Made by a program: the position numbers and the translations under genes. Source: Escherichia phage UGJNEcP1. Taken from it: 64,000 bases of DNA. The notes beneath the pieces are model-generated. The model did not search any database. It was given only the letters and a program-made list of their open reading frames with translations, and was not told where the DNA came from. Positions 775-24,153 of this stretch are shown here, piece after piece (position 1 is the stretch's first letter; each line of letters begins with the position of its first letter). Where the stretch lies: sequence record OV754623; one strand, given 5' to 3'.

Positions 775-3700
775 ATGGCTACATTAAAACAGATACAATT
801 TAAAAGAAGCAAAGTGGCAGGAGTTAATCCTACTGCAGCACAATTAGCCGAAGGCGAATTAGCGATAAACTTAAAAGATCGAACTCTTTTTACTAAAGAT
901 GACCTCGGTAATATTATTAGCCTAGGCTTTGCTAAGGGTGGGGATATTAACGGTAATGTAACTCAAACTGGCGATTATTTACAAAACGGCACGTATAATC
1001 TCAATGGAAATCAGTTTGTTTATGCAGGAAAATACATTGAATTTTTACCTAAAACCACTGGAAATGGCGCTTGGGCTAACCAACATTCGAATAAAGCCCC
1101 TATCTTTACAGATTTAAGTTCAACTACTTCTGTTTCAGAATACCATCCACTGATTAAACAACGCTATAAAGATGGAACTTTTTCTGCTGGTACATTAGTA
1201 AACGAAGGTAGTTTTAAATTCCATTATATTGATGAAACCGGGACTTCAAAATACTGGACTTTTAATCGAAACGGTAATTTTCAAGTTGATTCCGGAAGTT
1301 TATTAGTATCTAATGGATATTTAGTTACTCAAAGTAATATTGAAACTAAAGCTGGTTCTTTAATTGGTCCTAAAGTTATTACCAAAAATATCAATGTGAG
1401 CACTAAATCTTGGGACACTAATATTGATACTGCATATGATTTAGTTTCATTACCGACTTGGCAGTATACTCCAACCGAAACAGATTTGGATACTAATGGT
1501 ATAAACTACCTTCGTAAATTCCGCGGACATGTTTCTTCTGCTATTTTCCATGAAGTTGCTGATGCTCGTTCAGGTAAACCACAGAATATTTCGTATTGGA
1601 CAGGACGTAATGCTGAAGTTTATCAATGGTCTTATACCACAGATGGGCGTATGTCTGTTGCTAATTCGATAGGTATAGGTCTTGCTGATGTTGGTGACCA
1701 AGGACGTTATCCATTGGTTTCGTTTGGTAAAGGTATTGCAATTGGTGACAATGATACTGGTATTAAATGGGTTCGTGACGGGGTTATCGATTTAGTTGCG
1801 AATGGTATTTCTGCCGGCACTATTCTTAATAACGGTATTAACAGTACTAAAAAATTGATGGTTGGTTATAGTCGAGATTCTGGTTCTACTTGGGATTACC
1901 CAAATAACAACCAAGCAATGTTTACTGCGCGTACCGATGTTGATGGTAATAATAACGGTGACGGTCAGACTCATATCGGTTATAGTAGCAATGCCAAGAT
2001 GTATCACTATTTCCGTGGCACTGGTCGTATGTCCGTTAGTATGGGTGATGGGCTTCTTGTTGAGCCTGGCATTTTAGATATTAAAACCAGTTCAAATAGG
2101 GTTGCTATTAGAGCAGATGGTACATTTGACTCAACCCAACGTATTTCAATGCGTACTGGGTTATTTTTATCAGGTGATGACAATACCAATGCTTTGACAT
2201 TTAAAGCGCCTACAGGCGTTGACGGGACAAAAACCATTAACTGGGATGCAGGTACTCGTAATGGTCAGAATAAAAATACTGTAACCATTAAAGCATGGGG
2301 TAACTCATTTAACGCTGAAAAGGGTAATAGAGAAACTGTATTTGAAGTATCAGATTCACAAGGTTATTATTTTTATGCTCAACGTACCAACCCGGCTTCT
2401 GGTGAAACAGTAGGTCCTGTTAACTTTAAATTTAACGGAACTGTCGAAACAGGCCATATCATAGGCCTTGGTAATATAAGTGCCTCCGGTACAGGTTCTT
2501 TTGGTGGCAATGTTACCATGACTAATGGCCTGTTTGTCCAAGGTGGTTCTTCTATTACAGGCCAAGTTAAAATTGGTGGAACAGCTGATGCATTAAGAAT
2601 TTGGAATGCTGAATACGGTGCTATTTTCCGTCGTTCTGAAGATAAGCTTTATATTATTCCAACCCCGCAGAATGCTGGCGAATCAGGTGGTATTTCTAAT
2701 TTACGTCCGTTCTATATTACATTAAGTACCGGTAAAGTTTCTATGGACCATGATGTAGATATCGGTGGTGGAATATTTAAAGTAGAAACTAGTGGAACAA
2801 CAGCAGGGAAACGTATTACAGTTAATGCGGCGTCAGATGCTATTAGAATAAATGCCCCAACGCAAGAGTCTTCTAACTTTATTCAAGGACGTAAAGCAGA
2901 TGTTACAAAATGGTATTTAGGTATTGGCGATGGCGGCAACGTCGTTCGTATGCATAGTTACACCTATTCACATGGTATTGCACTGAATTCTGATACTGTC
3001 GATATTACTAAACCATTAAAAGTTGGTAATGCTCAATTCGGTACTGATGGTAATATCACTGGTGGTTCTGGTAATTTTGCTAACTTGAATACCACAATAA
3101 ATAACCTTAAGACAGATATTGTCTCAAGTTATCCAATTGGTGCTCCGATTCCTTGGCCTACTGATACACCTCCTGAAGGTTATGCCATAATGGAAGGCCA
3201 GACGTTTGATACTGACTTGTATCCTAAGTTAGCTGCGGTGTATCCTTCCGGCGCTCTGCCTGATATGCGCGGTCAAACTATCAAGGGTAAACCATCCGGG
3301 CGTGCTGTATTAAGTACAGAAGCAGACGGTGTTAAGTCACATAGCCATAGTGCAAGTGCGTCAAGCACGGATTTAGGTACTAAGACCACTTCTAGTTTTG
3401 ATTACGGTAGCAAAACGACTTCAAGCTTTGATTATGGTACTAAAACCAGTAATACTACTGGTAACCATAACCATACAGTGAGTGGTAATACTAGTGCCGC
3501 TGGTAATCACCAGCACTCACAGACAGGCCCAAGAGGACCTAGTAACCAACCGACCGGGATATTTCCTAATGGGGCTACTCTAATTAGTGGGACTCAGGTT
3601 ATTAGTTTTGGCCTAAGCAACGGTATCGTGCCTGGTACAAGCCAATATATTGCAAAGTCGTCAACAGAAGGTAACCATACCCATAGTTGGTCAGGAACTA

Positions 3701-3888
3701 CTAGCGCTACTGGTAACCATGCCCATACGGTAGGTATTGGTGCTCATACCCATTCGGTAGGTATTGGTGCTCATTCTCATACTGTTGCAATTGGTTCCCA
3801 TGGGCATACAATAACTGTAAATGCCACAGGAAATACAGAAAACACTGTTAAAAACGTTGCTTTTAACTATATCGTTCGTTTAGCATAA
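775..3888 (+). CDS. 37: Long tail fibre distal subunit gp37
   Basis: 1037 aa; C-terminal His-rich GNHxH / G(A/S)HxH repeats as in T4 gp37 needle domain; RBS aagagga. Confidence 0.9.
3403..3450 (+). repeat. In-frame tandem direct repeat inside gene 37 ([10 protein letters not shown] x2)
   Basis: Two near-identical ~24-27 nt units encoding [23 protein letters not shown]. Confidence 0.7.
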
Positions 3889-3921
3889 GGAGAAGGGACT
3901 TCGGTCCCTTTTTATAATATG
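3886..3921 (+). promoter_or_regulatory. Gene 38 translation initiation region: stable hairpin between SD and AUG
   Basis: SD aaggag at 3886-3891, hairpin gggacttcggtccc at 3895-3908, ATG at 3919; the hairpin would bring the SD to normal spacing, as described for T4 gene 38. Confidence 0.55.
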
Positions 3922-4470
3922 AAACTCTATCACTATTATTTTGACACTAAAGAATTTTACAAAGAAGAAAATTATAAACCATTAAAAGGCGTAGGATTTC
4001 CGGCTCATTCGACACCAAAAAAACCTTTAGACCCTAAAGAAGGCTATGCTGTTATATTTGACGAACGCGAGCAAGAATGGGTATATGTTGAAGACCATCG
4101 TGGAAAAACAGTATGGACTTATGATAAGCAAAAAATTGTTATTGACACTCCAGGTGCTCTTCAAAATGTTACTACAGAAGAACCTGGTGAATTTGACATT
4201 TGGACCGACGACGGGTGGAAGGAAGATGAAGCATATAAACGCGTAGTTCAACGTGATAAGAAAATTCATGAACTCTATAAATTATTCAGTGTTTTAAGTT
4301 CTCTTATTGACGCAGAGGTTGCTAATAGAGAAGAAAAACGAAAATTTAAAGAGCTCAAAAAATTCTTTGCCCTTTTAGAAAAACATGAACATCTTGGCGG
4401 CGAATTCCCTAAATTCCCTGACCTTGAAAAAAAATCTATTGTCAAAGCGATTATAAATATCTTTAAGTAA
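3919..4470 (+). CDS. 38: Tail fibre assembly chaperone gp38 (T4 type)
   Basis: 183 aa; N-terminus MKLYHYYFDTKEFYKEENYKP and C-terminus FFALLEKHEHLGGEFP match remembered T4 gp38. Confidence 0.85.
   Translation: MKLYHYYFDTKEFYKEENYKPLKGVGFPAHSTPKKPLDPKEGYAVIFDEREQEWVYVEDHRGKTVWTYDKQKIVIDTPGALQNVTTEEPGEFDIWTDDGWKEDEAYKRVVQRDKKIHELYKLFSVLSSLIDAEVANREEKRKFKELKKFFALLEKHEHLGGEFPKFPDLEKKSIVKAIINIFK
4452..4459 (+). promoter_or_regulatory. T4-type late promoter (TATAAATA) for holin t
   Basis: Exact TATAAATA about 20 nt upstream of the t start, followed by RBS aaggagg. Confidence 0.55.
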
Positions 4471-6940: not shown

Positions 6941-7281
6941 TTAAACCATTCCTTAATACGTTGCCAAATAGATTTTTGTGCTTGTTTATTTACACCAATC
7001 GAACGAATAACTGGTTGTGACTGCTGATATTCTTTATAATCTTCTTTATAGATTTCGTAAGCTGCATCAACAAATGAACTGATCGCTGCCATGTAGTTTT
7101 TACGAAGACCACCAGGAGCTACTCCATTAGGGAATTCGGAATTTTCGCGAATAATTAAATATAACCCAGCTTTAACCTTTACAATTGTCCCTAAATAAGC
7201 CCCGTGGTACCAAATATCCCATCCTTCCTGAGTAGGTTCTGCACATTTACGAAGTTCGTTAATAATATTCAGCTTATTCAT
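6937..7281 (-). CDS. Hypothetical early protein
   Basis: 114-aa ORF downstream of motA. Confidence 0.5.
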
Positions 7282-7291
7282 TATGTATTCC

Positions 7292-7924
7292 TCACAGTAC
7301 GTTAGTTACAAGAGTAATGATTTCTTTGGACACATTAGGGAAGTCAATGTAAGTATATTTACCACCGATCTTAATCTTAACATCATTTTCAAGAGAAGTA
7401 AACAGCTTTGATTCAGTTTCTGACATGTTGTATGCAAAGATTCTAAGAGCGCCATCTCGTCGAATTTCAATTTGGCGAATGCCTAGAACTCGTTTAGCGA
7501 ATCGAACTTCTAAGTTACTACGGTTTTCACCAATTTCTTTAACTTCAACTTTATCTTTAATATTTTCAAAAACAAAGTTTGCTAATTCATGCATTTCAGG
7601 AGTAACTCCACGTGCTTTTCTAGTGTTACGTTTCTGAAGAAGTTCTGGAGCATTTTCTTGGGCAAAGAGGTCTGCAGCTTTTTGGATAATATCCATTGCT
7701 TCGCCTGTTGCTATAAGTCCATCACCAGATTTTTCGACTAAACCTTTCTTAATCAATACACCAATGTTAGAGTTAACAACCGATGCATTGTATTCAGCTT
7801 CCAGAGCTTCACGGACATTAGCAGCAGTGGTGAAGTTGTTCTTAATGATATAAACCATTATTGCAGCAGTTTTTTCATTCAGAGCGTTTTCAGAAGCTTT
7901 GATGATGTAAGTAACTTTAGACAT
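7292..7924 (-). CDS. motA: Middle-transcription activator MotA
   Basis: From MSKVTYIIKAS..; VVNSNIGVLIKKGLVEKSGDGLI.TGEA and QENAPELL match T4 MotA; RBS ggag; the track ORF has a 20-codon upstream extension that covers the promoter. Confidence 0.85.
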   Translation of the reverse strand: MSKVTYIIKASENALNEKTAAIMVYIIKNNFTTAANVREALEAEYNASVVNSNIGVLIKKGLVEKSGDGLIATGEAMDIIQKAADLFAQENAPELLQKRNTRKARGVTPEMHELANFVFENIKDKVEVKEIGENRSNLEVRFAKRVLGIRQIEIRRDGALRIFAYNMSETESKLFTSLENDVKIKIGGKYTYIDFPNVSKEIITLVTNVL

Positions 7925-7961: not shown

Positions 7962-7992
7962 CTATAATACCATGTTTGAAGCAAAAGTAAAC
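7962..7992 (-). promoter_or_regulatory. Sigma70-type early promoter upstream of motA
   Basis: Minus strand reads GTTTAC, 17-nt spacer, TATTATAG; the spacer contains TGCTTCA, a MotA-box-like motif. Confidence 0.6.
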
Positions 7993-18729: not shown

Positions 18730-19173
18730 TTATTTAAATTTAATTTTCTGAAGTGCATCAATTGCAGCTAAACGCCCTTGTTCACTTTTAACTGTAATGA
18801 CCACATCGCCTGATACGATCACCGAACCATCAACAAATTCTATAGAGCCTTTTTTGAAATCGACAGCTGTATCTGGTTCCGGAACTTCTTCAAAGAATTT
18901 AAATTCTGCACCATAAATCAGAATATCACCTTGCATACTAATGATTGTACGTCTAGGTCCATCGGTTTCAGCGGCAATCATTGAAACACCATAACCAATC
19001 ATCTCTTCTACAATAAAATCTCTTGATAATAAAACTGTATGCAGAGTAGTGTTAAGACGTTTACCAGTTGTATTAAGAATTCTCAAGAAATTATCTTCTT
19101 GACCTTTGATAATACGATATTTCTTACCAACTTCAAAACCTTTAAAACCTTTAAAAGCCGTATTAAAAGCCAT
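18730..19173 (-). CDS. Hypothetical protein (147 aa)
   Basis: ORF in the variable region between 39 and dexA. Confidence 0.5.
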   Translation of the reverse strand: MAFNTAFKGFKGFEVGKKYRIIKGQEDNFLRILNTTGKRLNTTLHTVLLSRDFIVEEMIGYGVSMIAAETDGPRRTIISMQGDILIYGAEFKFFEEVPEPDTAVDFKKGSIEFVDGSVIVSGDVVITVKSEQGRLAAIDALQKIKFK

Positions 19174-19175
19174 AA

Positions 19176-19355
19176 TTAACCCTTCTTAAGTAAGTCGTAA
19201 AAACCACCGTTCACATGTTTAGGAGCAGAAACCCGACGAGTAGACAGACGATGACATTCAGGGCAAACATCGTTTTCTCGTTCAGAAATCCTTTTAATTT
19301 TTTCATATTCATGACCACAATCTTCAGATTGACATTTATAGTCGTATAACGGCAT
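19176..19355 (-). CDS. Zinc-ribbon small protein (FmdB-like)
   Basis: Hand-translated [45 protein letters not shown]...; two CxxC pairs; below the track cutoff; TAATG overlap with the upstream gene. Confidence 0.55.
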   Translation of the reverse strand: MPLYDYKCQSEDCGHEYEKIKRISERENDVCPECHRLSTRRVSAPKHVNGGFYDLLKKG

Positions 19356-19768
19356 TATTGTTCCTTAAAATGTGCTTTCAACATTTGATACAAAGACCAT
19401 GCCTGGTCGTTATTTTCGATAGTAATCGTCATCACAGGAAATTCAGACAATTCGTCAAGTTCATCAGAATCTTGCTCTTCAGACGCTTGATATGGATTTC
19501 CAACTTCGTCAAAGAACTCTGCTTCATTCGTGGAGAGCCAGATAAAGTTTTCATCAAGGATATCACCGCCTGTTGCGTATCCAACCGTGCCAGTAGATGT
19601 TAAAATTTTAGTAGGACGTCCGAGATGGTCAACATCTAATACTTTAAATGGTTCCATGCCAAGACGTCGTGCATAAATCCCATTATCAGTGTGGTCTTTA
19701 ATAAACTCTTCTTGGGCACGTTTATCTATAAATTGATACCATGAGTTAACGCGGAATTTATTAGCCAT
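19355..19768 (-). CDS. Hypothetical acidic protein
   Basis: ORF from [13 protein letters not shown]; acidic C-terminal stretch. Confidence 0.5.
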
Positions 19769-19995
19769 TAGTAAGTTTCCTTCCAATAAGTTGTACCATT
19801 TTCAGTGATTTCACGGAAGATACCATAGATAGGCATTTCATCGCCGAGTTTTTCGTAAACGTAAACCACTTCGGTGTAGCATAAAAATTCAGTCCAGTTT
19901 TTCTGTACAACAACTAAATCAGGATTAAACAGAACATCTTCAAACTCATCGATGTTTGAATCGGTAGTTACGTTTTTAATGATTTGACGTTTCAT
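19768..19995 (-). CDS. Hypothetical protein (about 75 aa)
   Basis: From the internal Met MKRQIIKN with RBS agaggag; the track N-terminal extension would cover the promoter. Confidence 0.5.
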
Positions 19996-20023
19996 AATAT
20001 TCTCCTCTTGTTTTGATAGGTCT

Positions 20024-20052
20024 ATAGTATCATAGACCATAGTTGTTGTACA
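20024..20052 (-). promoter_or_regulatory. Sigma70-type early promoter with inverted repeat
   Basis: TGTACA, 17 nt, TACTAT; arms GGTCTAT / ATAGACC flank -10. Confidence 0.5.
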
Positions 20053-20577
20053 TCATTTTAGCAAAATAAAATCAACTTGTTCTGCCAATGAACGTCTGAA
20101 CATTAATTGACAACTTCCAAGGATGAAATCAGGTGCTTCATAGACCGCGATGTAGTATCCTTTAGCTTTCAAGAGTTCAACATCCACCTGGTCATCAAAC
20201 CATGCATAGACCGCGTCAACACTTTCAAATCCAAAATAGAACTCTTGAGCCCAATCTTCGCTCAATTCAAATGTGTGCTCAATTCTATGGTATCTTAAGG
20301 TATTTTGTTCAAGGAGTTTGTCTTCATTTACTGTAGGACGATTAGGGACATTATAGTTGTCGCCATGATGGTAGAAGTTACCTGAGAGTATTCCATGCTT
20401 ATCAAGGAACTCCCATGTTTCTTCAGAGTTGTCGGTGCCCGACCAACCGTATGGCGAACGAGGTTCTTTATTCCAAGAGGTTTCCCAAATTCTGACGGCT
20501 TTACCGTCTTCAATAGCAATTCCTGGTAATGATTCACGTTGAGTACAAAAACTACGTTCTACTCGGTAAACTAACAT
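20053..20577 (-). CDS. Hypothetical protein (174 aa)
   Basis: ORF with its own upstream promoter; no family recognised. Confidence 0.5.
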   Translation of the reverse strand: MLVYRVERSFCTQRESLPGIAIEDGKAVRIWETSWNKEPRSPYGWSGTDNSEETWEFLDKHGILSGNFYHHGDNYNVPNRPTVNEDKLLEQNTLRYHRIEHTFELSEDWAQEFYFGFESVDAVYAWFDDQVDVELLKAKGYYIAVYEAPDFILGSCQLMFRRSLAEQVDFILLK

Positions 20578-20604
20578 ATTATTCTCCTCTGGTTGATATG
20601 GTTA

Positions 20605-20632
20605 TAATATCAAAACCAGAGGAGAAGTAAAC
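20605..20632 (-). promoter_or_regulatory. Sigma70-type early promoter with 11-bp inverted repeat
   Basis: GTTTAC, 16 nt, TATTAT; arms CTCCTCTGGTT / AACCAGAGGAG flank -10. Confidence 0.55.
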
Positions 20633-20636
20633 AACT

Positions 20637-21056
20637 TTATGCAAAAGATGCTGGACAATATTTTTTGATTTGGAACTCAGGAACTACCATGAACTGACCA
20701 GCAAAAACAATGTTATAAAGCTTGACGCCATCTTCAACCCATTGGTCACTGATGAACCCAGCGACTTGATTCGTTGTCCACGGTGTTCCGTCTGTCGCAG
20801 AGGCAATGGTGAACTTGTGGTCTTTTACAACTAAAACCGATCTGCACAGTTTCCATTTGAACGCTTTTTCTTCCGGTTCAATGAATTGGCTTTTAACGTA
20901 ACCAATGTTACCATCGGCGTCACGAACTTTAATTTCGTTACGTCCAAAAACAGGATCACTCACATAAAGAACTTCAACCAACTTCCCGGCAACTTTAGAG
21001 CGAGAAGCATCCGATACGTGTACATAATCACCAATAGAGAGATTTGCAATATTCAT
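20637..21056 (-). CDS. Hypothetical protein, paralog family member A
   Basis: 139 aa; shares SxASRSKxAGxLVEV and GFISDQWVEDG.KLYNIVF with the next gene and a conserved ~30-nt DNA stretch with both neighbours. Confidence 0.6.
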   Translation of the reverse strand: MNIANLSIGDYVHVSDASRSKVAGKLVEVLYVSDPVFGRNEIKVRDADGNIGYVKSQFIEPEEKAFKWKLCRSVLVVKDHKFTIASATDGTPWTTNQVAGFISDQWVEDGVKLYNIVFAGQFMVVPEFQIKKYCPASFA

Positions 21057-21065
21057 AATAATTCC

Positions 21066-21530
21066 TTAAGCTTTACGAGGAGACACATAGCGAGTGATTT
21101 CAGATTCTTCAACAACTCGGAAGTCACCTAAGAATACAATATTGTATAGCTTTTTACCATCTTCAACCCATTGGTCGCTGATGAAGCCGCACATAGTATC
21201 AGTTTTGCTTGGATAACCGTATTCGTCGATGTAATCAAATTCTTTATCGGTTATAAATTCAACGCCTTTGCAAAGGGCCCATTTGAACTGTGTAGTAGGC
21301 TCAACGATATCGCTTGAAGCAAATTGGACTCGTATATGTTTTTCCAGGAATTTAGGACTTACGTAAGCATACTGGGCATCTTGTCCGCCAAAACTCGGGA
21401 TGATTCGAACTTTAACTTCTTTAACACGTCCCATGCCGTTAGTACGAAGCCCTGCTACTTCAACCAGACGACCTGCAGCTTTAGAACGAGAAGCAGGAGA
21501 TACACGAAGGATTTCACCAATAGTAATCAT
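21066..21530 (-). CDS. Hypothetical protein, paralog family member B
   Basis: About 154 aa from MITIGEILRVSPASRSKAAGRLVEV; the track N-terminal extension overlaps the promoter. Confidence 0.6.
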   Translation of the reverse strand: MITIGEILRVSPASRSKAAGRLVEVAGLRTNGMGRVKEVKVRIIPSFGGQDAQYAYVSPKFLEKHIRVQFASSDIVEPTTQFKWALCKGVEFITDKEFDYIDEYGYPSKTDTMCGFISDQWVEDGKKLYNIVFLGDFRVVEESEITRYVSPRKA

Positions 21531-21592
21531 AATTTCTCTCTCTTTGTTTAAATTGAATTCACTATACTCCATCCATCCTTGGATGTACAACA

Positions 21593-22087
21593 TTAATTAA
21601 GGATATTAACCACAGCACTACGTGGAACAACACTAAAATCACCAGCATGAACAACGTTAATAAGTTCAACACCATCTTCAATCCACTGGTCAGTTACCCA
21701 TCCACTCACTGGACCTGCGAACGGACGTCGAATTGAAACGGCTTTACACAACAAATCAGTAGGCTCAATAGGCTTAATCAGAGTACCGTACATACAAGCG
21801 ATGTCCATATCAAAGTGGAGACCATCTTTAACAGGTGCTTCTTCAATCAACAGTTCAAAGTCTGTGCTTGGAAGGGCGGTAGTAGAAATTGTACCGTATG
21901 AATTTTTAATTTCTAAGAATAACCAAGGGCCTTCAGCTTGTTTGATGAAGTTAACAATAGTGAAACTATTACCTTGAGTGGCACCTAAAATTTCACAAAA
22001 CTTTTCATAAGCTCGCACTGAAGCACCGTACCAATTGATTTGTTTTTCGTCTTTCAGGATGTAAGTAGCCGTAGTATTGATATTCAT
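21593..22087 (-). CDS. Hypothetical protein, paralog family member C
   Basis: 164 aa; C-terminal GWVTDQWIEDGVELINVVHAGDF related to A and B. Confidence 0.6.
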   Translation of the reverse strand: MNINTTATYILKDEKQINWYGASVRAYEKFCEILGATQGNSFTIVNFIKQAEGPWLFLEIKNSYGTISTTALPSTDFELLIEEAPVKDGLHFDMDIACMYGTLIKPIEPTDLLCKAVSIRRPFAGPVSGWVTDQWIEDGVELINVVHAGDFSVVPRSAVVNILN

Positions 22088-22118
22088 AATGTTTTTCCTG
22101 TTTGGTTAAGATAGAAAG

Positions 22119-22148
22119 ATTATACTCCAACCATCCTTGGTTGTAAAC
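22119..22148 (-). promoter_or_regulatory. Sigma70-type early promoter with spacer hairpin
   Basis: GTTTAC, 18 nt, TATAAT; the spacer holds a 6-bp stem hairpin (caacca-tcct-tggttg); same element at the 3' window edge. Confidence 0.55.
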
Positions 22149-22152
22149 TGTT

Positions 22153-22830
22153 TTATCGCTGTTTTACACTTAACGGGTCAGGATTCTCAGGGACATCTTC
22201 AAGGCCAAGCGCATAACGCTGGGCATATTTTAACATCAAAATATCTTTAGCACAATCATGAATACTATCATGGGCAACGAATCCTTTTAGCGTACCCATC
22301 GGTAATGGACACATACTTAATCCTCGTGTCAACGAGTAAGCTTCGATTGCCGTACGAATATCACGTTGAGCCCAGAATTTAACAGGTTCTAATTTATCAG
22401 TATCAATATCTGGTTCAAGAACACCTTCATCACGATAGAGGTCACGAATCAAATCGACCAAGATTGGGAAGTCAAAGCTCATACCACGACACCACATCTG
22501 TGATTTCCATTGGTCAACTTTATTAGCTCGACAATAATCTAAAAAGATTTTAATGCCTTCAAGCGTAGTGACATCGTCTTCAGACGGAGCCAAGTTTTTA
22601 CGTGCTTCAGCCGATTGTTCTTTCCACCATTTCATAGTTGATTTAGCGAAAACTCGCTTCCCTTTCTGAGAAGCTAAATTAAATTTAATTCGCTTACCTC
22701 GTTGAACAAGTTCTTCGAATGATTCAACAACTTCAGGGTCGGAATTATATGCAATAACCGCAAGGTCAATAACGGCCGCTTTTGATGTATTGCCGAATGT
22801 TTCAAAATCTATAATAACATCAGTGCTCAT
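22153..22830 (-). CDS. dexA: Exonuclease A (DexA), DEDDh 3'-5' exonuclease
   Basis: 225 aa; N-terminal D-x-E motif (IIDFETFG) and T4 dexA position next to dda. Confidence 0.8.
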   Translation of the reverse strand: MSTDVIIDFETFGNTSKAAVIDLAVIAYNSDPEVVESFEELVQRGKRIKFNLASQKGKRVFAKSTMKWWKEQSAEARKNLAPSEDDVTTLEGIKIFLDYCRANKVDQWKSQMWCRGMSFDFPILVDLIRDLYRDEGVLEPDIDTDKLEPVKFWAQRDIRTAIEAYSLTRGLSMCPLPMGTLKGFVAHDSIHDCAKDILMLKYAQRYALGLEDVPENPDPLSVKQR

Positions 22831-22839
22831 AATTTTCTC

Positions 22840-24153
22840 TCAAATAAAATGGACGTCAAACCGACCACGAGTTGTGCCGACATACAATAACTGTTTAGCT
22901 AATTCTGAATCGGCATAATGGATACACGGTGTATAAACAAAGGCCGTGTCAACAGACATACCCTGGGCCTTATGGAAGGTTGATACAGGTAGTGCCTTCA
23001 CCTTAGTGAACATACGTTTAGCATCCCAGAATTCGCTCCATGGAGCTTTACCACCTTTATTCCAGAATTTGTATGTTTCTGCGGTCTTAGCCAAAAACAA
23101 ATTGAATTTATAAAGCTCTTCTTCAGAAGAAATAACCTTTATATCTTCGCGGATGTATTCTTCATCATCCCCATATGTTTCTACTGTAAGATTCCAGTAT
23201 CGTATCATATATTCGCCTGAAACACCACGTGCTTTAACGAATGTAGACGTTTCTACAGCATCTCGAATACGAACGAATTGCCCGTTATTGAAAAGCATTT
23301 CAGTCATATTTTTGCCATCTAGCTTGTACGTCTTAGTAAATGGCTCTTGTAGAACAATGACTTCGTCTTTAATAAATGGTTTTTCTGTTTCAAGAAGTTT
23401 TCGGCGAATAATTGAATTTAACTTGTCCACCGACTTATTTGTGAATGCCATCATTCGATTTTCGAAAAGGTCTTCAGGAGTTTTAACGACGTTAAAATAG
23501 TTCATCATATACGATTTAAGGTCTGTATATCCATGAACACCGTGTCCATCAACTACTTTATCGTAAATCCATTTGCCATTACGAATATCAGTCGCAACAT
23601 CAATAATTGGTGCATTGCTACGTTTAACTTCTGTAAGGTTGCATTGCACGAAGTCTTTGTGAGTGAAGAAAGGACTTAGATACGCAGTTGATTCGCCTGG
23701 GTCTACCGGACGAATCTGGCATCGGTCGCCGATTCCAATTACTGTACACCATTTAGGGATACTAGCTAACATTATTTTAAACAGAGAACGGTCGCACATT
23801 GACGCTTCATCAAATAACAGTACACGACACAAGGCTAAGTCGGGAACCTTTTTCTGTTCAAACAATACGTTTTCTTCGTATGTAGTTGGGTTGATTTTAA
23901 GAATGCTATGAATAGTCGATGCTTCTTGACCCGCAAGTTTGCTTAGAACCTTTTTAGCAGCATGTGTAGGGGCTGCTAAAATAATACCTGATTCTCCAGA
24001 AGAAATAAGGGCTTCAACGATGAATCTAGTAAGGGTTGTTTTACCTGTACCAGCAGGTCCATTAATAGTTACATGATGTTTCTTTTCTTTAATAGCTTTC
24101 ATAACAACGTTGAAGGCGTTTTTCTGGCCTTCAGTCAAATCATCAAATGTCAT
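22840..24153 (-). CDS. dda: Dda DNA helicase (SF1B)
   Basis: 437 aa; Walker A GPAGTGKTT, Walker B LLFDEASM and N-terminal LTEGQKNAF as in T4 Dda. Confidence 0.9.
   Translation of the reverse strand: MTFDDLTEGQKNAFNVVMKAIKEKKHHVTINGPAGTGKTTLTRFIVEALISSGESGIILAAPTHAAKKVLSKLAGQEASTIHSILKINPTTYEENVLFEQKKVPDLALCRVLLFDEASMCDRSLFKIMLASIPKWCTVIGIGDRCQIRPVDPGESTAYLSPFFTHKDFVQCNLTEVKRSNAPIIDVATDIRNGKWIYDKVVDGHGVHGYTDLKSYMMNYFNVVKTPEDLFENRMMAFTNKSVDKLNSIIRRKLLETEKPFIKDEVIVLQEPFTKTYKLDGKNMTEMLFNNGQFVRIRDAVETSTFVKARGVSGEYMIRYWNLTVETYGDDEEYIREDIKVISSEEELYKFNLFLAKTAETYKFWNKGGKAPWSEFWDAKRMFTKVKALPVSTFHKAQGMSVDTAFVYTPCIHYADSELAKQLLYVGTTRGRFDVHFI

Follow-up and report, generated by a model that had tools for sequence, protein, structure and literature searches.

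A probable motB.1-motB-motB′ early-gene cluster of old paralogues in Escherichia phage UGJNEcP1

Three consecutive open reading frames (ORFs) on the minus strand of Escherichia phage UGJNEcP1 (OV754623), located in a stretch of 64,000 nucleotides that was analysed as a whole (hereafter the window), very probably constitute the motB.1-motB-motB′ early-gene cluster found between dexA and cef in RB69-like phages (Mosigvirus) and in some T4-like phages, and sequence comparison shows the three to be old paralogues. These are gene C (21593..22087, 164 aa), a MotB.1 homologue, gene B (21066..21530, 154 aa), the MotB orthologue, and gene A (20637..21056, 139 aa), a second MotB paralogue. An earlier note on this DNA had taken the three ORFs for a tandem triplication within a gene family. 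The ORFs are present as it described them and the paralogy is real, but only A and B are paralogues along their whole length, and C has no more than the C-terminal domain in common with them. The gene family and its copy-number pattern (two motB and one motB.1) are already published for the same genus, RB69 having been reported to carry two motB, one motB.1, and a 29-aa peptide (PMC7827196). The finding itself therefore matters little, since a published family and copy-number pattern have been re-discovered and the suspected gene conversion is absent, and the value of the analysis lies in its by-products, namely a frameshift in motB.1 of the T4 reference, the identity of the 29-aa peptide of RB69, and natural B::A fusion genes.

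Over the region 19300-22900 the sequence matches Escherichia phage UGJNEcP2 (OV877511.1; Straboviridae, Tevenvirinae, Mosigvirus) at 100% identity and many RB69-like phages at 95-98%. In transcription order along the minus strand, dda (22840-24153) comes first and is followed by dexA (22153-22830), C, B, A, a motB.2 homologue (20053-20577, 174 aa, 33% identical to T4 MotB.2), and then cef, goF, 39.2, a goF paralogue, and topoisomerase gene 39. RB69 and AV111 are annotated with the identical order motB.2, MotB-like, motB, motB.1, dexA, and the RB69 record (NC_004928: motB.2, ORF010, motB, ORF012c, motB.1) is from the same genus as the window. The cef-dexA interval of T4 also holds motB, motB.1, and motB.2, in an order differing from that of the window, and the placement of the MotB-family cluster between cef and dexA is syntenic with T4, RB69, RB68, and AV111. 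Copy number was followed by tblastn in 778 phage records with a MotB match, 207 of which contain an A-type orthologue (at least 80% identity), while the other 571 give only matches below 60% identity, that is, orthologous MotB. A-type genes occur in Mosigvirus and in some Tequatrovirus (RB68, ime09, PP01), always adjoining motB.

Membership in the MotB family is supported by profile comparison for all three proteins. With the gathering cut-off of Pfam family PF17613 (motB) set at 25 bits for the whole-protein score, A reaches 81.7, B 126.6, and C 36.8 bits, the match in C being confined to residues 88-159 against profile positions 82-153. A and B are assigned to phrog_1671 (MotB-like; E=8e-52 and E=1e-61, respectively) and C to phrog_2333 (E=6e-81). 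In pairwise BLASTP, the A-B alignment is full-length, with 42% identity (E=4e-31), whereas significant alignment with C extends over only 29 residues of A (62%, E=5e-11) and 36 residues of B (44%, E=3e-9). Compared with T4, B is 46% identical to MotB over 155 aa, A is 39% identical to MotB, and C is 38% identical to MotB.1. A multiple alignment of A, B, and C has 24 invariant columns, nearly all within the C-terminal 40 residues, where the common block reads G(F/W)(I/V)(S/T)DQW(V/I)EDG...L.N.V..G.F.VV, and its core DQW(V/I)E(D)G...L.N.V is invariant across 26 MotB and 22 MotB.1 sequences. The C-terminal motif of the type (F/V)(I/T)SDQW(V/I)EDG that had been attributed to the three proteins is thus found in each of them. 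A further motif, SxASRSKxAG.LVEV, had been attributed to all three as well, but it occurs in A and B only, C having a different N-terminal domain.

Both A and B possess a KOW-like N-terminal domain with the motif IGE..RVS..SRSKAAG.LVEV, which in B is followed by a basic linker and the MotB C-terminal domain, and in A by the same C-terminal domain after a linker that is about 20-25 residues shorter. C consists of a five-stranded LSm-like/SH3-like N-terminal barrel, a disordered linker, and a MotB-type C-terminal domain, the combination that defines MotB.1 (PHROG 2333); the disordered linker residues 87-106 carry the motif DMDIACMYGTLIKP. The AF2 model of A (mean pLDDT 81.5, from a 26-sequence alignment) is predicted to form two small beta-barrels, one of four strands at the N-terminus (residues 11-55) and one of five strands at the C-terminus (73-133). 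That of C (mean pLDDT 78, from 22 sequences) likewise has two small beta-barrels, with one helix in the N-terminal barrel, disorder at 87-106, and the same C-terminal strands as in A. These predicted folds agree with the published assignments of a KOW domain to the N-terminus of MotB (Patterson-West et al., 2021; PMC7827196) and of an LSm-like fold to the N-terminal domain of MotB.1, to GoF, and to Frd.2 (Kim et al., 2025; PMC12152347). For the C-terminal domain of MotB, an OB fold has been predicted by HHpred (PMC7827196). It has also been noted that MotB.1 has the C-terminal but not the N-terminal domain of MotB and that one gene may derive from duplication of the other (PMC7827196). The similarity among A, B, and C is that of a folded domain, with all three PF17613 matches above the cut-off, and the short low-complexity stretch that the earlier note had named as the finding that would undo its claim was not seen.

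B is the positional and sequence orthologue of T4 MotB, with the same KOW-like SRSKAAG.LVEV and C-terminal domains and likewise an early promoter of its own. A has the same two-domain architecture as T4 MotB; T4 lacks a second MotB copy, and A is that extra copy. The calculated pI falls from 9.2 in T4 MotB to 7.7 in B, 6.7 in A, and 4.65 in C. C and T4 MotB.1 both have the same N-terminal barrel followed by a MotB-type C-terminal domain, and both genes lie immediately upstream of motB. They differ in that C has a 23-residue inter-domain insert (VKDGLHFDMDIACMYGTLIKPIE) and a complete C-terminal domain, whereas the T4 reference protein (119 aa) ends inside the invariant motif, after DQWI and before EDG.

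The breadth of the family was explored with a profile of the three C-terminal domains, searched against 1.84 billion representative proteins at E<=1e-3. Of the 29 matches, about 26 are short proteins (43-251 aa) that carry the domain C-terminally, three long ones (with Ig, MucBP, and C1q repeats) were set aside as spurious repeat matches, and nothing was found outside T4-like phages with this profile in this collection. The domain occurs behind a KOW domain, behind an LSm-like domain, behind an N-terminal DMD(I/V)ASMY motif plus an LSm-like domain (about 180 aa), and behind two LSm-like repeats (251 aa); in three proteins (P0105, P0169, P0178) a KOW-like N-terminal domain is joined to a C-terminal domain of the MotB.1 type.

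It had been claimed that each copy has its own early promoter. This is borne out for B and C, for which candidate sigma-70 type promoters lie on the minus strand at 21561..21589 (TGTACA-17-TATAGT) and at 22119..22147 (TTTACA-17-TATAAT, 11 of 12 consensus matches), respectively, both fitting the T4-type early consensus TTTACW-N17-TAYWAT (PMC4122927). The claim fails for A, which begins 9 nt past the stop codon of B; two promoter scans gave no sigma-70-like promoter upstream of A, and no MotA-box (TGCTT) was seen by eye in 21057-21200. Judging from this arrangement, A is probably expressed together with B, on the transcripts that also cover B and C. As for the start of B, the database record annotates a 175-aa protein from 21593, using an ATG that overlaps the stop codon of C; the added residues would have to be translated from the promoter of B itself. 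The N-terminus MITIGE of the 154-aa form matches MIINIGE of T4 and the RB69 annotation. The homologues in T4 and RB69 as well as the placement of the B promoter therefore favour the start at 21530, and it is possible that the 175-aa form is made from read-through transcripts.

Directly downstream of A, RNA folding and promoter scanning point to a putative promoter/stem-loop cassette on the minus strand (20582..20626) of the PeSL class described for T4-like phages (Arbiol et al., 2010; Comeau et al., 2014; PMC2839356, PMC4122927). As in those cassettes, a promoter (TTTACT-16-TATTAT at 20631..20604) lies within a strong hairpin, which encloses the -10 box and has a perfect 12-bp stem with a further 6-bp helix; in contrast, the promoters of B and C lack a comparably strong stem. 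The fold has an energy of -23.9 kcal/mol (z=-5.7), none of 200 shuffles folding as well, and the hairpin is predicted to pair with the ribosome-binding site of the motB.2 homologue. An early promoter combined with a stem-loop was found at 20582-20631 only within this plastic region, and promoter-plus-hairpin motifs of similar appearance occur at about six other positions of the window. The only Rfam match in the region, to Y_RNA, was below threshold (26.3 bits against a gathering score of 38) and was taken as chance, and the idea of an RNA element at this place was dropped.

At the DNA level, the pattern CCATCTTCAAYCCAYTGGTC occurs exactly three times in the 64 kb, at 20728, 21157, and 21672, and never in 100 shuffles of the window. 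The copies in A (20728..20747, plus strand) and B (21157..21176, plus strand) are identical over 20 nt, and their reverse complement encodes D-Q-W-V-E-D-G; the segment in C (21672..21691, plus strand) is identical at 18 of 20 positions, with both differences synonymous, and encodes D-Q-W-I-E-D-G. What had been described as a nearly identical DNA stretch of about 30 nt is hence a genuine three-copy match, but one of 20 nt, identical between A and B only and off at two positions in C. A repeat finder places the pattern inside a 94-nt block with 71% and 62% identity. A second repeat shared by A and B (20971..21037, plus strand, with its partner at 21457-21523) extends over 67 nt with 72% identity, encodes IG.....VS.ASRSK.AG.LVEV, and is absent from C.

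Read on the coding strand, the 20-mer is GAC CAA TGG GTT GAA GAT GG, in which all residues apart from Val and Gly have one or two codons, and under the codon usage of the window the same codons for DQWVED would be chosen by two independent genes with P of about 0.05. When the A-B protein alignment was kept and every codon was redrawn from window codon usage, the longest identical run averaged 12.9 nt, compared with the 20 nt found, and runs of at least 20 nt arose in 9% of simulations (P=0.09). Where two of the proteins have the same residue, the codon is also the same at 36 of 61 positions for A-B (27.9 expected), 18 of 38 for A-C (17.4), and 19 of 40 for B-C (18.1). Moreover, silent differences stand beside the 20-mer (AGT/AGC, GGC/GGT, GGG/GGC, CTT/CTA, TAT/TAC, AAC/AAT, GTT/GTA, TTT/TTC), so that A and B disagree at 8 of the 18 degenerate codons of the most conserved block. 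The match is beyond chance for random DNA, but not beyond expectation for genes that encode the same low-degeneracy peptide, and the DNA is nearly identical because the invariant peptide uses one- or two-codon residues under the codon bias of the phage.

A role of these segments at the DNA level would nevertheless be conceivable if the FKW and DQWVEDG codon blocks acted as crossover points, at which unequal recombination changes copy number and swaps domains, and we regard this as a tentative reading with somewhat less than even prospects. Natural fusion genes speak for it, three database proteins being mosaics. In the gene for the first (P0029), the initial ~270 nt match T4 motB at 93-100% identity, and the remainder matches the RB68 A-type gene, again at 93-100%. 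Five contigs, which represent at least three independent samples, carry the protein, and on the two contigs that show the upstream neighbour (L006, L007) this gene is the sole KOW-type MotB gene. The second (P0027) has a B-type 5′ end and an A-type 3′ end, and the third (P0031) switches type exactly at DQWVEDG. A product with the N-terminal part of B and the C-terminal part of A is expected from unequal crossover between tandem genes, and such natural B::A fusions mean that a tandem MotB pair can collapse in this way. On this view the conserved blocks would now and then serve as sites of crossover, and only in this respect would the DNA segment count for more than its coding. The three proteins that join a KOW-like N-terminal domain to a MotB.1-type C-terminal domain point in the same direction, as does the location of the region among PeSL cassettes, to which the literature ascribes a role as mediators of shuffling (PMC2839356, PMC4122927). 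On the other hand, the microhomologies in the window are short (9 nt at FKW, 20 nt at DQWVEDG), junctions are mapped with a resolution of only about 30 nt, the fusions come from short metagenome contigs, that of P0031 from a single 1.1-kb contig, and the run-length simulation gives no sign of selection on the DNA beyond the peptide requirement. Even if it took place, such recombination would be an evolutionary side effect rather than the function of the locus.

That a recent tandem triplication, or an ongoing gene conversion, keeps the segment nearly identical in the three genes, as the earlier note had suggested, is very improbable. This idea draws on the exact 20-nt match of A and B with its 18/20 counterpart in C, absent from shuffled sequence, on the A-B excess of identical codons, and on the promoter regions of B (21540-21587) and C (22098-22145), which are 75% identical over 48 nt and resemble each other in their spacers more closely than the window's other early promoters do. 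However, synonymous divergence is saturated, with whole-gene pS (Nei-Gojobori) of 0.63 for A-B, 0.60 for A-C, and 0.70 for B-C and dS above 1.2. Neither low dS nor identity at silent sites beyond the invariant peptide was seen, and taken together, the saturated pS, the silent differences in codons flanking the 20-mer, and the run-length P of 0.09 give no indication that the genes were duplicated recently or underwent conversion. The distance between A and B matches that of each to T4 MotB, and A and B orthologues are separately conserved across genera: the A orthologue of Tequatrovirus RB68 is 89% identical to A, compared with 42% between A and B within one genome. C, furthermore, lacks the N-terminal domain of A or B. 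The slight A-B excess of shared codons (36 vs 27.9) leaves room for some ancient sequence exchange.

All three copies are maintained. Comparison with orthologues from RB69, RB68, and AV111 gives dN/dS of 0.09-0.14 for A, 0.22 for B, and 0.05-0.26 for C, and all three copies are under purifying selection. Very improbable, too, is the view that A or C is a decaying pseudogene left from duplication, a view which could appeal to the missing promoter and shortened linker of A and to the disrupted motB.1 reading frames in the T4 and RB69 reference genomes but which is ruled out by the low dN/dS of A and C against their orthologues, both being intact ORFs in the window, with A orthologues in 207 phage records and with the T4 disruption limited to the reference record, 13 other T4-type records being intact.

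The three old paralogues are built around a shared C-terminal domain, about 55-75 residues long and with the invariant core G(F/W)(I/V)(S/T)DQW(V/I)EDG, which is joined to a KOW-like barrel in B and A and to an LSm-like barrel in C. T4 MotB is an early, sequence-nonspecific DNA-binding protein that accepts modified as well as unmodified DNA; it co-purifies with H-NS and StpA, its overexpression is toxic, and it raises burst size twofold (Patterson-West et al., 2018; PMC6070864). By analogy, B and probably A could be abundant early DNA-binding proteins without sequence specificity, which would coat and compact DNA, alter the seating of host H-NS and StpA, and bring a modest gain in burst size. 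The N-terminal domain and linker of B are basic (pI 10.1), and B in particular may act as a DNA binder resembling nucleoid-associated proteins, modifying H-NS-DNA complexes early in infection. The function of A is probably similar, although A may have sub-functionalised, given its near-neutral pI of 6.7 and its shorter linker. Since the charge of A and C is unlike that of T4 MotB, strong nonspecific DNA binding is uncertain for A and unlikely for C; with charge as the sole proxy, such binding is hinted at for B, open to doubt for A, and improbable for C. For the acidic C, RNA or a protein partner is the likelier target, contacted through its LSm-like domain.

The common C-terminal domain is acidic in B and C and carries the invariant surface motif D-Q-W-x-E-D-G, and because of these two features we consider it more likely to be an interaction or oligomerisation module than the DNA-binding part. 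A more far-reaching proposal, which we consider unlikely, is that this domain is an adaptor, either for one host or phage target or for hetero-oligomerisation of the paralogues, that is mounted on swappable heads, KOW serving for DNA and a single or double LSm-like barrel for RNA, with the codons for FKW and DQWVEDG doubling as crossover points for head swaps and copy-number change. If this adaptor proposal were true, the A, B, and C proteins of a given phage would not be redundant but would act jointly on a common target.

The comparison with the reference genomes also bears on published work on MotB.1. A one-base insertion in the T4 reference (NC_000866.4/AF158101.6) truncates MotB.1 from 143 to 119 aa, and the motB.1 frame is intact in 13 other T4-type records. 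Knock-outs of T4 MotB.1 have been reported to show no phenotype, and the protein was without effect in an RNA reporter assay (PMC12152347). The published MotB.1 constructs were built on the T4 reference annotation, and their size matches the 119-aa product. Given that the constructs follow the 119-aa annotation, the negative MotB.1 results may describe a truncated protein. In the RB69 record, two single-T insertions split motB.1 into a 132-aa ORF and the 29-aa ORF012c, whereas the window has one intact gene of 164 aa at this place; the 29-aa peptide of RB69 is the frame-shifted C-terminus of motB.1 and not a separate gene.

The motB.1 gene of the T4 reference genome appears in annotation as a 119-aa open reading frame, and comparison of this locus (7142-7650 of NC_000866.4, positions 3643-4151 of our T4 segment) with the window at 21593-21700, the end of gene C, revealed one surplus G within conserved codons (...GAC CAA TGG ATT G|GA AGA TGG CGT TGA). 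Reading in the next frame gives EDGVELLNVVHAGEYSVVPRSAVVAILN*, which is the end of the conserved domain. The split is confined to AF158101.6/NC_000866.4, whereas 13 other records, among them T4T, three KJ4776xx, MT984581, two OL9647xx, two OZ209xxx, RB55, and RB59, encode an intact, unsplit MotB.1 of 143 aa (P0058). The two MotB.1 papers, both based on the NC_000866.4 annotation and neither mentioning a frameshift, reported a 13.8-kDa monomer, which corresponds in size to the 119-aa product.

The reference motB.1 of RB69 (NC_004928, positions 3877-4373 of our segment) is also broken, since compared with the window sequence it has a single T inserted at two places. These insertions split the gene into a 132-aa ORF and the 29-aa ORF012c, so that the "Category 3 29-aa peptide" (Patterson-West 2021) is the frame-shifted C-terminus of motB.1. 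The cause of the break could be either a strain mutation or a sequencing error.

Natural mosaics of MotB were found on four contigs. In three of them (L006 2501-2992, L007 2199-2690, and L008 37-528) a 5′ part of T4-type motB is joined to a 3′ part of the type of gene A, and in the fourth (L009 1373-1894) the 5′ part is of gene B type and the 3′ part again of A type. On L006, L007, and L009 there is no KOW-type MotB gene besides the mosaic, and such sole-copy mosaics are consistent with a tandem MotB pair having been collapsed by unequal crossover.

Between gene A and the motB.2 homolog, on the minus strand, lies a promoter/stem-loop cassette (PeSL; 20582-20631) that combines a promoter with a hairpin of a 12-bp perfect stem and a 6-bp helix extension (-23.9 kcal/mol, z = -5.7). 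The -10 box TATTAT sits in the loop of this hairpin, whose 3′ arm coincides with the motB.2 homolog's ribosome-binding site, GAGGAGAA; as predicted from this arrangement, the site would be hidden on read-through transcripts and exposed on transcripts initiated within the hairpin. Seven more early-promoter-like sites on the minus strand, near 7992, 8313, 10622, 10883, 11395, 32022, and 33540, follow the pattern GTTTAC/TTGTAC-N17-18-TATAGT/TATTAT/TATAAT with inverted repeats flanking the -10 box (e.g., TAGGACTATGTTATAGTAGTCCTA), and they look like additional cassettes of the PeSL type.

The annotated 175-aa form of gene B starts at an ATG that overlaps the stop codon of gene C (TAATG, 21591-21595), and because of this overlap a long B isoform could be produced by translational coupling on transcripts from the promoter of C. 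Its 21 additional residues would come from B's own promoter sequence. Within the coding sequence of C, a Y_RNA-like Rfam match on the minus strand (21845-21938; 26.3 bits, E = 0.032) fell below the gathering score of 38 and was taken as chance.

One short sequence pattern, D(M/T)D(I/V)A(C/S)(M/A)Y..(L)(I/V)(K)P(L/I)E, turns up repeatedly, at varying positions, in MotB.1-type proteins. It lies between the two domains in C (residues 85-107; window 21766-21834), within a linker of low confidence in the AF2 model, is N-terminal in the ~180-aa forms, and occurs also in a KOW-type protein. In the database proteins P0080 and P0178 it spans residues 18-34 and 113-128, respectively. Possibly it acts as a short linear motif for binding.

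The window carries goF and, two genes away, its paralog; the pair occupies 18730-19173 and 19355-19786, and each member hits phrog_622 (E = 3e-19 and 2e-38). For the goF-like protein encoded at 18730-19173 there is, in addition, a weak hit to the MotB.1 family phrog_2333 (E = 0.0015), in line with the LSm-like kinship already published for GoF and MotB.1.
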